Positions 2,555-4,754 of a DNA stretch of 37,261 nucleotides are shown here, piece after piece. Under the pieces are notes generated by a model. That model had not been told where the DNA came from, did not search any database, and saw only the letters and a list, made by a program, of their open reading frames with translations. The translations under genes and the position numbers were made by a program. Each line of letters begins with the position of its first letter. Positions within the stretch are counted from its first letter, which is position 1. Source of the DNA: a virus (taxonomy: Duplodnaviria > Heunggongvirae > Uroviricota > Caudoviricetes); the IMG/VR virus record IMGVR_UViG_2711768064_000001, positions 1-37,261 of that record; one strand, given 5' to 3'.

Positions 2555-3097
2555 TTTGTTCTCCACGTATATGCGCTGCACCGCGCTGAATTCGGGTAAA
2601 AGGAAGCCCTCACCGTCCGGCGATTATTGAGTCAATTACATTTCCATAAATGCCCCCGTAGGGGCGGTTAGTTTCTCCACAAAACAGAGAAGAACACCTG
2701 TGGTGGCAGCCGCCCGGATGGATTGGGTTATGAGCCCGTCGTCCGATGATGCTCTTCTCTGTTTTGTAAAAAGGACGGTACCAGCCGGAAGCAAGGGTAC
2801 AAGCTGGTACCGCCAAGACAACACACAGCATAAAGTTGTGGTGCCGGGTGCCTCCCGGTGCCTGGCGAAGGTTGTACACCAGACGGGTGGGTATCCACAG
2901 AAGGTCGACTGTCAGCCTCAACCTTAACCCGCGTGCGCTGAGCCGCATTCACCACAACGCTAAGGATTCTCTCTGGTTGAAAATACTTAGCTGTTATGTG
3001 CCTGCTTTTAGCCACATCAGGCGAGGTGGACCTGGTTATTCCCCAACAACAAGGATTCGGTATAATCTGGATATCCCAACAACAGGTAGGAAGGAAA

Positions 3098-3181
3098 TAT
3101 GTACGTAGATAGCAATGAAAAATTTCATGTTCCGGTAAATCAGAGACCAGCACCGATCCCTGAGCCGAAACCTGAAATGTA
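3098..3181 (+). CDS. Small proline-rich peptide (27 aa), paralog a
   Basis: ATG at 3098 with AGGAAGGA RBS; C-terminal motif HVPVNQRPAPIPEPKPE shared with two downstream small ORFs. Confidence 0.35.
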
Positions 3182-3192
3182 AGGGAATAGAG

Positions 3193-3672
3193 ATGACTCG
3201 AGACGATCTAGCATTCGATATTCATTATTCTTTCTTTCTTGAGAAAATGAATTACACCCTTTTAAATCGGATAGACAAGAGCATAACTCTTGTTCTCATT
3301 GTCTTGGGCTTTTCTGTTTTTGCGCCATATAGCAATATGTTTATTTTTGGCGCATCTGTAGCTATTTTGTCGGTGCTTCAATTGGTATACCAATTTGGGC
3401 AGGAAGCTGGCTTATCAAAGGAACAGATGCGACAGTATAAAAGGTTGATTGTTGAGTTTTCCTCCCTTTCTGATGACGAACTACGCACTCGGTTTTTAAA
3501 GGTTCAAGACGCTGATAGTAATCCATGGAGATCTTTACAAGATGCTGCGTTCAAACGGACCTGTATTGCGCTGGGACGTGTTGATGAGTCAGAAATATCA
3601 TTCATGCATAGCGTTATCGCATGGTTTGCTGGAGATTTGCCTCGGTCAAAAAGGTGTAATAATGACAAATAG
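3193..3672 (+). CDS. Membrane protein with two predicted TM helices; SieB-like superinfection-exclusion candidate (by position and topology)
   Basis: 159-aa AT-rich ORF convergent with the repressor gene; hydrophobic segments ITLVLIVLGFSVFAPY and IFGASVAILSVLQLVY; own TATAAT box upstream and terminator downstream. Confidence 0.6.
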   Translation: MTRDDLAFDIHYSFFLEKMNYTLLNRIDKSITLVLIVLGFSVFAPYSNMFIFGASVAILSVLQLVYQFGQEAGLSKEQMRQYKRLIVEFSSLSDDELRTRFLKVQDADSNPWRSLQDAAFKRTCIALGRVDESEISFMHSVIAWFAGDLPRSKRCNNDK

Positions 3673-3778
3673 AATTCCCATAATCCCTAACCATGTACCT
3701 CCAAAGCCCAGACCACCATCACCAAAGTCACACAGGCTTTATGAGTATGAATTAATAATGGATTCTATATTGAGATGA
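3662..3778 (+). CDS. Small proline-rich peptide (38 aa), paralog b
   Basis: ATG 3662 overlaps the stop of the membrane-protein gene; motif NHVPPKPRPPSPKS. Confidence 0.3.
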   Translation: MTNRIPIIPNHVPPKPRPPSPKSHRLYEYELIMDSILR

Positions 3779-3782
3779 CCAA

Positions 3783-3872
3783 ATGAATGCATTTATATAT
3801 ACATGGAAAGAGGATCATATACCCTTAAAACCTCGTCCTTCACCGCCAGAACCGAAGCCAAAATCCCGTTAA
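3783..3872 (+). CDS. Small proline-rich peptide (29 aa), paralog c
   Basis: Motif HIPLKPRPSPPEPKPKS near-identical at peptide level to paralog a but with synonymous codon differences. Confidence 0.3.
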   Translation: MNAFIYTWKEDHIPLKPRPSPPEPKPKSR

Positions 3873-3904
3873 GTGTTGGGGATCTCCAGATTGTTAAAGA
3901 GCGA

Positions 3905-3927
3905 AGCGTCCTATAGGGCGCTTTTTT
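3905..3927 (+). terminator. Rho-independent terminator ending the plus-strand mini-operon
   Basis: Stem 3905-3911 / 3916-3921 (one G-U pair), loop TATA, followed by TTTTTT. Confidence 0.6.
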
Positions 3928-4011
3928 GTTGCTAACGAATCATCCTGGACTTCATATGCCCCAGGCGGCTACTTCGTGGGCGTCCTGCCTGTTCGTTGTT
4001 TCGCTTGGGTA

Positions 4012-4039
4012 CATTATGTATCTCAAAGGTACATTGTCA
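4012..4039 (-). promoter_or_regulatory. Candidate leftward early promoter (pL analog) overlapping GTAC operator-like sites
   Basis: Minus-strand TTGACA (plus 4034-4039), 16-nt spacer, CATAAT (plus 4012-4017). Confidence 0.4.
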
Positions 4040-4043
4040 AGTA

Positions 4044-4066
4044 TAAAAAAACCTGCCGAAGCAGGT
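4044..4066 (-). terminator. Rho-independent terminator downstream of repressor gene
   Basis: Minus-strand hairpin AACCTGC-CGAA-GCAGGTT followed by T-run. Confidence 0.6.
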
Positions 4067-4079
4067 TCATAAACATTGA

Positions 4080-4754
4080 TTAGGCTTTGATTTTGTATCT
4101 TCTTGGTTTTCCTGAGAAAATCACTGTACCAATTATAGAGCAATTACCGTTGATCTTAATGTAAGGCTCAGGCCAGTTTGGGTTTAACGCTTTGAGATAA
4201 CGCTGTGTCCCATCTTCTATCAACCTTTTGAAGGTGGTTTCACCTGTATCGTGCATCAATGCAATAACGTCGTCACCGTGGCAGGCAGGTACTTCAGGAT
4301 CGACAAAAATCATGTCTCCCGGGCGGTACTCATCAATCATTGAATCACCTATCACCCGCAAGATATAAGTCATTTCCCCACAGGGTACAGGGCAGGGATA
4401 CGTTTCTGCTGTGCTCAAATCAACCTCAGAATATCCAACTTCTTTCCATGCTCCGGCCTGTACCCATGATATGACAGGGACTAATGTGATTTGTTTATTA
4501 GTGATTGAAACATCAGGTTTTTTTGTGATGTTCGTTGTCTGGTGTTCTTGATCGAGCCATCCGACAGGCAGGTCGAAACATTTTTCGATGTGTCGTGCCA
4601 TGCTGTCACCGATATTTTTAGTAGCACCATCTCCCATAAACCTGCTGGTCTGGGTTGGCTCGCGATCAATCATAGTGGCAAAGGAAGAATTCCCGCCAAC
4701 ACCATCTCTCAGTTTTCTGGCGTTAGACCGCCGGATGTCATGGATTGTTTTCAT
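4080..4754 (-). CDS. CI-type prophage repressor with C-terminal S24 (LexA-like) peptidase domain
   Basis: 224 aa; N-terminal HTH-like region, C-terminal VIGDSM...GD..FVD segment typical of S24 autocleaving repressors; divergent from Cro-like gene. Confidence 0.85.
   Translation of the reverse strand: MKTIHDIRRSNARKLRDGVGGNSSFATMIDREPTQTSRFMGDGATKNIGDSMARHIEKCFDLPVGWLDQEHQTTNITKKPDVSITNKQITLVPVISWVQAGAWKEVGYSEVDLSTAETYPCPVPCGEMTYILRVIGDSMIDEYRPGDMIFVDPEVPACHGDDVIALMHDTGETTFKRLIEDGTQRYLKALNPNWPEPYIKINGNCSIIGTVIFSGKPRRYKIKA

Follow-up and report, generated by a model that had tools for sequence, protein, structure and literature searches.

The stretch of DNA analysed here (the window: 37,261 nucleotides, IMG/VR record IMGVR_UViG_2711768064_000001) is an SfV/e14-type lambdoid prophage of E. 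coli. Between its repressor gene and its early-left genes sit four plus-strand open reading frames (ORFs), a module of ~870 bp in total: a gene for a membrane protein of 159 amino acids (aa), one proline-rich micro-ORF ahead of it and two more behind it (Table 1). The first-pass annotation, made from the sequence alone, had described this cluster as bracketed by a TATAAT box and a terminator and as convergent with the repressor gene. The TATAAT box lies exactly where it was placed, the terminator (given as 3905-3927) corresponds to a stem followed by a T-run, and a Peptidase_S24 gene on the minus strand does face the cassette. The ORF coordinates were right for the 159-, 38- and 29-aa ORFs, while the 27-aa ORF, given as 3098-3181, is one base off. 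RefSeq annotates only the 159-aa gene of the cassette, as hypothetical.

Table 1. Features of the micro-ORF cassette and its surroundings, in window coordinates.
Feature	Position	Strand	Remarks
Upstream micro-ORF, 27 aa, MYVDSNEKFHVPVNQRPAPIPEPKPEM	3099-3182	+	
Membrane protein gene, 159 aa	3193-3672	+	Predicted two transmembrane helices; SLATT-like; phrog_6315
Downstream micro-ORF 1, 38 aa, MTNRIPIIPNHVPPKPRPPSPKSHRLYEYELIMDSILR	3662-3778	+	ATG overlaps the end of the membrane gene
Downstream micro-ORF 2, 29 aa, MNAFIYTWKEDHIPLKPRPSPPEPKPKSR	3783-3872	+	
TATAAT box, putative -10 of the cassette promoter	3061-3066	+	Read from the sequence; lies in the slot's conserved left flank
Intrinsic terminator of the cassette	3903-3931	+	9-pair stem 3903-3924, then T-run; in the conserved right flank
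Inverted repeat, left arm, AATCTGGATATCCC	3064-3077	+	Pair of 14 nt, 93% complementary to 3879-3892
Inverted repeat, right arm, GGGATCTCCAGATT	3879-3892	+	
pL-like early-left promoter, TTGACA-16-CATAAT	4013-4040	-	11/12 consensus matches; context, outside the module
Integrase gene	Runs off the left end of the window	-	
Peptidase_S24 (LexA/CI-type) repressor gene	4080-4754	-	Convergent with the cassette
cro-like and cII-like genes	After the repressor gene	+	

Purine-rich, Shine-Dalgarno-like sequences precede the 27-aa ORF (AGGAAGGA), the 159-aa ORF (AAGGGA) and the 38-aa ORF (AAGGTG); the 29-aa ORF has only a weak Shine-Dalgarno-like sequence (GAGATGA). The stop codon of the upstream micro-ORF (TAA, 3180-3182) overlaps the AAGGGA (3181-3186) that would serve the membrane gene.

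All three micropeptides share a proline-rich motif, as had been noticed in the first-pass annotation. A six-frame translation of the 37-kb window contains its strict form, H[VILM]P-x3-[RK]P-x(1-2)-P, three times, each time in one of the three micro-ORFs, vs a mean of 0.03 occurrences expected by chance (200 shuffles). For a looser version on the plus strand, H[VILM]P-x(2-4)-[RK]P, none of 5000 shuffles of the region reached two or more matches. The synonymous codon differences reported among the peptides are also real; the motif arginine is encoded by AGA, AGA and CGT. Two of the window's peptides have peculiarities of their own. The upstream peptide is atypical, with no YEE[KR] segment and with prolines that alternate, none of them consecutive, and downstream peptide 1 has a 17-residue C-terminal extension (HRLYEYELIMDSILR..) that is absent in relatives. 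None of the window's three peptides is present in a collection of 15 billion proteins, and of four peptides from relatives looked up there, one was found (the Sodalis upstream ORF, deposited as hypothetical).

Homologues of the membrane protein numbered 78 at 90% clustering, with 249 family representatives at 50% clustering. Loci drawn from the encoding contigs, species genomes, viral contigs and metagenomes gave 50 distinct configurations, with membrane proteins at 34-100% identity. Salmonella, Klebsiella, Enterobacter, Cronobacter, Citrobacter, Pectobacterium and Sodalis are among the genera with related loci. The upstream micro-ORF is present in 47/50 configurations; in two of the exceptions the available DNA does not extend upstream, and the third (L084) is degenerate. 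Every one of the 50 has downstream motif ORFs, with one to three per locus; a second is frequent and a third occasional. The peptide motif thus co-occurs with homologous membrane genes in other prophages, a check that the first-pass annotation had proposed. We also scanned 2.9 million viral contigs for degenerate DNA encoding H-x-P-x3-R-P-P-x-P-P-K, which returned 14 loci, 13 of them beside a membrane-protein homologue; the 14th is a chance match within a long GC-rich frame. The scan of species-representative genomes gave three loci only, and scans with distant family members were mostly empty.

The arrangement of the ORFs is conserved as well. The distance from the end of the upstream ORF to the membrane gene is 6-20 nt, usually 7-8, and the upstream stop codon typically lies within the Shine-Dalgarno sequence of the membrane gene (GACTGAGGT; the window's equivalent is TAAGGGA). 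The downstream ORF starts at or just ahead of the membrane-gene stop codon. Micro-ORF starts in relatives are mostly ATG, with an AGGA/GGAG-type sequence 5-10 nt upstream. Upstream peptides follow the consensus ..DYEE[KR]H[LM]P-x-[KR]Q[RK]PPxPPKPKDE*, and downstream peptides follow MS[KR]PxPIIPNHVPPKPRPPAPK or MSRPIEPFHVPPRPRPPQPGK, downstream peptide 1 being 21-27 aa long in relatives (e.g. MSKPxPIIPNHVPPKPRPPAPK). Both upstream and downstream micro-ORFs persist at 42-47% membrane-protein identity (L089, L091 and L101), and at 34% identity (L088) only the upstream micro-ORF is present.

The frames of the micro-ORFs are open in every lineage. In codon alignments, which were built on the peptides and so favour such a result, third positions differ most (0.57, 0.65 and 0.63, vs 0.31-0.49 at first and second positions), and the pooled ratio of non-synonymous to synonymous differences (pN/pS) is 0.42-0.57 for the micro-ORFs (0.42 for the upstream ORF) vs 0.31 for the membrane gene. 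At the conserved proline, arginine and histidine columns, all synonymous codons are in use, including all four proline codons, and it is because of this that we place the conservation at the peptide level. Relatives keep the frames and the motif while varying the synonymous codons, in agreement with the earlier suggestion of peptide-level conservation rather than recent duplication. A recent DNA duplication giving rise to the three peptides was rejected, as most differences among the units are at third positions and orthologues of every unit are found in other genera. The proline-rich frames could also have been a by-product of an AC-rich RNA or DNA motif, which the first-pass annotation had named as grounds for dismissing them; the micro-ORFs survive this test, as all four proline codons and several arginine codons occur at conserved columns.

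The motif units are also found joined to other sequences. In Pectobacterium, the 180-aa protein P0022 (six contigs, two contexts) carries the downstream peptide as an in-frame C-terminal tail of the membrane protein (..AGDLPTEKESKMAKPPVDGHIPPRPRPPAPPKAQN). In its AlphaFold model, the linker has a predicted local distance difference test score (pLDDT) of 48-55, and the motif end, residues 171-180 (RPPAPPKAQN), has a mean of 79; this pattern is suggestive of a tail docked on the folded part, as far as a predicted structure can tell. Elsewhere, motif units are duplicated in one ORF or fused together (L003, L014, L016 and L022), and downstream micro-ORF 2 is sometimes fused to downstream micro-ORF 1 (L003, L016 and L022), as expected for modular ligands. 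In two further loci (L018 from Enterobacter and L066, an IMG/VR contig), the membrane ORF is 186-189 aa long and reads through the downstream-peptide-1 region in another frame; the peptide frame persists inside this longer ORF. We also considered a programmed frameshift from the membrane gene into downstream ORF 1, the frame of which is open from 3500. Frameshifting was set aside on two grounds: there is no canonical slippery heptamer, and in every locus examined the downstream ORF begins with a start codon of its own (ATG, or GTG in L005), in most cases behind a Shine-Dalgarno-like sequence.

Codon choice within the micro-ORFs of the window and of L003-L022 is skewed in one respect. AGA and AGG (AGR) make up 65% of their arginine codons, vs 34% in the membrane genes and 17% in long ORFs from these loci (Fisher p=4e-5); for the motif arginine, 22 of 24 upstream and first-downstream micro-ORFs use AGR. 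It may be that slow decoding is selected for, or that a Lys/Arg neighbour effect underlies the excess. Slow decoding would suit a reading in which the micro-ORFs are cis-acting elements of translational control and the released peptides have no role: ribosomes would pause on the proline-rich stretch, in a manner dependent on elongation factor P (EF-P) or resembling arrest peptides, helped by the rare AGA/AGG codons. A ribosome at the end of the upstream ORF would then cover or uncover the ribosome-binding site of the membrane gene, conditioning its synthesis, e.g. when infection perturbs translation, while the downstream ORFs would act on mRNA stability or Rho access.

Stalling at polyproline, which EF-P relieves, and arrest peptides of the RAPP/SecM type are established mechanisms, and the module shares with them a short ORF, its C-terminal half rich in proline, directly ahead of a gene that it could control. 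The stop codon within the membrane-gene Shine-Dalgarno sequence (TGAGG), the short gap to the ATG and the PP stretches of most peptides, such as RPPAPPK, all fit this well, as does the AGR excess, although the latter can equally stem from Lys/Arg exchange (AAR<->AGR) at the motif position. The fit ends with the downstream ORFs: one to three motif ORFs lie behind the sole long gene, with the last one followed by the terminator, so that there is no target in cis. The motif-to-stop distance of the upstream ORFs varies by 2-8 codons, conserved residues are also found outside the proline stretch (His, YEE[KR]), and most upstream ORFs have consecutive prolines but the window's does not. The minimum-free-energy folds of 16 loci shared no hairpin that would hide the membrane gene's ribosome-binding site; a conserved mRNA switch structure was thus not found, in contrast to the arrest-peptide systems. 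The motif's in-frame fusion to the membrane protein is also more easily explained by binding. Cis-acting pausing is the main alternative to our preferred reading (below), though on balance we think it rather unlikely.

Another reading makes the peptides themselves the effectors. Their core, [H/Y]-[VIL]-P-(P)-[RKQ]-P-R-P-P-x-P, resembles that of the proline-rich antimicrobial peptides (PrAMPs) apidaecin, oncocin and Bac7, which have in common with the micropeptides a length of ~20 residues and a PRPP/PRP core after an aromatic residue or histidine and an aliphatic residue. Oncocin, for example, contains ..PYLPRPRPP... The likeness, judged by eye, is seen in HVPTQPRPPAPPSK of L008 and FHVPPRPRPPQPGK of L014 when set beside apidaecin 1b (..PVYIPQPRPPHPRL; PMC10862732). 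PrAMPs made inside E. coli inhibit their producer via the 70S ribosome, for which the PRP core is required (PMC10862732). The phage peptides might thus be intracellular PrAMP analogues that act on the ribosomal exit tunnel or DnaK and damp phage or host translation, with the membrane protein as an accessory for immunity, release or sensing. We find this highly improbable. The likeness is compositional and extends over short motifs, the phage peptides are rich in lysine rather than arginine, and those encoded upstream have acidic residues at either terminus. How far PRPP lies from the C-terminus is not conserved, whereas apidaecin needs its C-terminal end. Peptides made constitutively in a lysogen would be harmful to the host, and the fusion to the membrane protein would be left without explanation. 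PrAMPs are made as secreted animal precursors; the module's peptides are phage-encoded, have no signal or pro-sequence and are always linked to a membrane protein.

That membrane protein is modelled by AlphaFold (pLDDT 77) with helices at residues 3-43, 50-90, 94-106, 113-127 and 137-145. The first two form a long hairpin with a hydrophobic stretch at residues 31-66, which fits the earlier description of a protein with two transmembrane helices (2TM), and both termini are presumably cytoplasmic. The protein falls in phrog_6315, a family of unknown function (PHROG match 2.8e-51). The label 'SieB-like', which the first-pass annotation had attached to it, was not upheld. Pfam gave no match to SieB, RexB or Abi families at E<=1 for the window protein and 28 homologues, PADLOC gave none either, and searches of Pfam, PADLOC and NCBIfam with all four products found no SieB, RexB, Abi or toxin-antitoxin family; phrog_6315 was the sole family match. 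The accompanying remark that the arrangement matches no described exclusion or toxin-antitoxin module stands, with no PADLOC model fitting it.

Instead, the protein looks like a remote relative of the SLATT proteins, the resemblance being weak in sequence profiles and clearer in the predicted fold. Pfam and NCBIfam gave no SLATT match at E<=1 for the window protein. Among the 28 homologues, two match SLATT_5 at 5e-4 and one matches Pfam SLATT_5 at 0.034, and 4/10 distant family members match SLATT_4 at 2.2e-5 (24 bits, cut-off 55). These sub-threshold SLATT_4/5/1 matches fall over the hairpin region. Three homologues in UniRef are named SLATT, and the best fold matches among viral proteins in BFVD are mostly SLATT-named, with high Foldseek probability and weak E-values. 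As in SLATT proteins, the AlphaFold model has a two-helix membrane hairpin with flanking N- and C-terminal cytoplasmic helices; the module protein is also similarly small and sits on a mobile element in a conflict-type locus. It differs in staying below every curated threshold and in its company. In at least 20 loci, we found no SMODS, SLOG, TIR, reverse-transcriptase or nucleotide-generating partner, the neighbours being lambdoid early genes and the repressor; the constant partners of this protein are the proline-rich micropeptides. Because the hidden Markov model (HMM) matches are sub-threshold and the fold E-values weak, we call the protein SLATT-like and not a SLATT member.

The cassette lies in a variable cargo slot next to the repressor, which supports the earlier observation on its site beside the immunity region. 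The flanks of this slot (~2662-3030 and 3860-4100) are 90-99% identical in SfV, SfII, SfIV, PhiR29/PhiR49 and other phages and are present in 887/5426 complete E. coli genomes. The cassette itself was found in 52 genomes and in 0/50,697 deposited phage records. In the Shigella phage SfIV (L002, 1570-2004), the slot holds an unrelated 144-aa soluble protein (SfIV_36) with the same leader (..TCTGGTTATCCCCAACAAC..) and terminator, and there is no proline-rich ORF upstream of that protein. The micro-ORFs are therefore part of the cargo and not of the slot, and the cargo is exchanged between a fixed leader, with the putative -10 box, and a fixed terminator. The cassette terminator is also kept in relatives of the module, e.g. 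L091.

Since the same slot can carry unrelated cargo, position alone is no proof of defence. The module could instead serve lysogenic conversion or phage physiology, as a holin/antiholin-like pair, a regulator of lysis timing, an addiction module or an envelope modifier, with the peptides as assembly partners. Small 2TM phage proteins are often holins, and the lack of a PADLOC match would also be in keeping with such a role, but the orientation of the cassette is not: it opposes the early-left operon and is closed by a terminator of its own, as is usual for morons expressed in the lysogen and not for lysis genes. Lambdoid lysis cassettes are located elsewhere in the genome, and the fold matches are to SLATT effectors, not to holins. 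A role outside defence thus seems quite unlikely to us.

An inverted repeat brackets the cargo, with one arm just past the -10 box and the other just ahead of the terminator. The same motifs flank the cargo in distant relatives too, where the right arm translates as '..GYPDC*' (e.g. L091). Pairing of the 5' and 3' ends of the cargo mRNA is one possible role of the repeat; it could also exclude the cargo, as a loop, from an antisense pL transcript, or mark cassette exchange. A second copy of CCCAACAAC is present ahead of the -10 box. We infer the cassette promoter, since a consensus scan found no -35 element matching the TATAAT box and the relatives differ at the -10 position, having TTAATCT, one base shorter, where the window reads TATAATCT. 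Compared over 3058-3068, the window's perfect TATAAT amounts to one extra A relative to all aligned relatives (L002, L008, L012, L014 and L022), where the sequence is GGTTAATCTGG. Expression of the cassette may be stronger in the E. coli lineage, or its true promoter may sit elsewhere.

On the other strand, directly downstream of the repressor terminator (4068-4049), the promoter listed in Table 1 is probably pL/oL. It is flanked by the two GGTACAT-containing copies of a direct repeat (D2, 3997-4035), which resemble operator-like sequences near cro. Judging by its position, a transcript from this promoter would run antisense through the whole cassette. Further along lies the left flank of the slot (~2610-3030), which is conserved, ORF-poor and GC-rich and is annotated in RefSeq as a frameshifted hypothetical gene. 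Its minus strand (2765-2988) matches the full Rfam model of STnc100, a gammaproteobacterial small RNA (sRNA), at 39.6 bits (gathering 47, E=1e-6), and over 2600-3090 the predicted fold of the minus strand is much more stable than those of shuffled sequences (z=-4.1). With the pL-like promoter upstream of it, this STnc100-like block could represent a structured leader or an sRNA of the early-left transcript. Within the cassette, Rfam searches of both strands, at gathering or E-value thresholds, returned nothing.

Our preferred reading, which we put at roughly 40%, is that the module encodes a SLATT-like membrane effector, expressed in the lysogen and gated through the binding of cytoplasmic micropeptides, with a role in phage exclusion or abortive infection. 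The cargo operon, whose slot in this SfV/e14-type prophage separates the repressor gene from the early-left operon, would be transcribed in the lysogen from its own weak promoter, convergent with cI. Its products would be a SLATT-like 2TM protein of the inner membrane and two to four cytoplasmic micropeptides of 20-40 residues, sharing a polyproline-II-type motif, H-[VILM]-P-x3-[RK]-P-P-x-P-P-K. The upstream peptide would be made first; its stop codon lies inside the membrane-gene Shine-Dalgarno sequence, and the two ORFs are therefore likely to be translationally coupled, which would ensure co-production. The downstream peptides would begin at or just past the membrane-gene stop. The peptides would bind the cytoplasmic helices of the membrane protein and keep it closed or control its assembly, in a toxin-antitoxin-like manner. 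Peptides acting as binding partners would best account for the constant linkage to this protein family, the conservation at the peptide level, the motif ORFs on either side of the gene, the modular duplications and the fusion with the membrane protein, the modelled tail of P0022 being the only indirect sign of contact. As a trigger, we propose that a superinfecting phage upsets the supply or binding of the peptides (e.g. by translation shut-off, proteolysis or sequestration), upon which the freed effector, presumably toxic, would de-energise the cell and bring about exclusion or abortive infection. During prophage induction, antisense transcription from pL across the cassette could silence it.

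The position and orientation of the cassette, its own terminator and the strong pL-like promoter that faces it suggest expression in the lysogen and a role in exclusion or abortive infection, and a defence function would be in keeping with both the position and the type of effector. The corresponding position next to the repressor is occupied in other phages by rexAB, sieB and bstA (BstA: PMC8585504). SLATT proteins are predicted pore-forming toxins (bioRxiv 10.64898/2026.04.29.721553, citing Burroughs 2015), and how SLATT effectors are activated has been called an open question (bioRxiv 10.64898/2026.04.29.721553).

Several of our results weigh against this reading. Even the best-scoring family members stay below the curated SLATT HMM cut-offs, and the signal in the P0022 tail comes from one AlphaFold model with zero alignment depth in the tail. 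The cassette promoter is a -10 box alone. The window's own upstream peptide is the most divergent of all, in its prolines as in its missing YEEK. Up to four similar antitoxin-like peptides per effector would be unusual for a toxin-antitoxin system. Finally, P0160, the most distant relative examined (28% identity, in a lytic-phage-like context, L105), has no micro-ORFs; the association is therefore one of a subfamily and not of the whole family, and the protein can exist without them. P0160 (L105, 2604-3459) lies in an AT-rich context with RNase H, AAA and RNase T genes and directly follows a 129-aa protein with hydrophobic segments.

Under a further reading, apidaecin/oncocin-like peptides encoded by temperate phages would act on the ribosome from within the cell, in trans or as nascent chains that hold the ribosome at termination. 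Coupled to the SLATT-like effector, they would form a translation-sensing abortive-infection switch, with production or release of the pore protein depending on the condition of the ribosome, EF-P or release factors during infection. In our estimation, this is very unlikely.

With a peptide-gated membrane effector as the preferred reading, the module can be compared with known systems. Like sieB (with esc) of P22 and lambda and rexAB of lambda, it has a membrane protein gene beside the repressor gene and a presumed exclusion or abortive role; its layout also suggests expression in the lysogen. Its relation to pL transcription resembles the sieB/esc/sas arrangement of P22, reportedly described by Ranade and Poteete in 1993. 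Unlike SieB and RexB, the module protein has no sequence similarity to either in Pfam and no RexA-like partner, and control would be exerted by separate micropeptides and not by an in-frame truncated product such as Esc. With type II toxin-antitoxin systems, the module shares a small upstream gene that is probably translationally coupled to a potentially toxic one, and a presumed neutralisation by binding. Its candidate antitoxins, however, are proline-rich peptides of 20-40 residues with no DNA-binding domain; they number two to four and are encoded on either side of the putative effector.

We know of no description of proline-rich micropeptide partners for SLATT systems, and micropeptide partners of any such system were not described in the literature library that we searched. 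Full-text literature searches aimed at the module and at its protein accession, also with combinations of related terms, likewise found no description. What appears to be new, on the strength of the sequence comparisons, is thus a SLATT-type membrane effector with previously undescribed micropeptide partners, to which we can assign only an inferred function.

The module is small and present in prophages of E. coli, Salmonella and Klebsiella, and is hence directly testable by cloning, while the motif's likeness to ribosome-targeting PrAMPs offers a concrete and falsifiable lead. If our reading is true, this is a compact and widespread prophage module in which an effector of the SLATT kind is under the control of micropeptides of 20-40 residues and not of a nucleotide signal or an enzyme. 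This would be a new regulatory logic for SLATT-type effectors, and the peptides would represent a new family among the functional micropeptides of bacteria and phages, one overlooked by gene callers.

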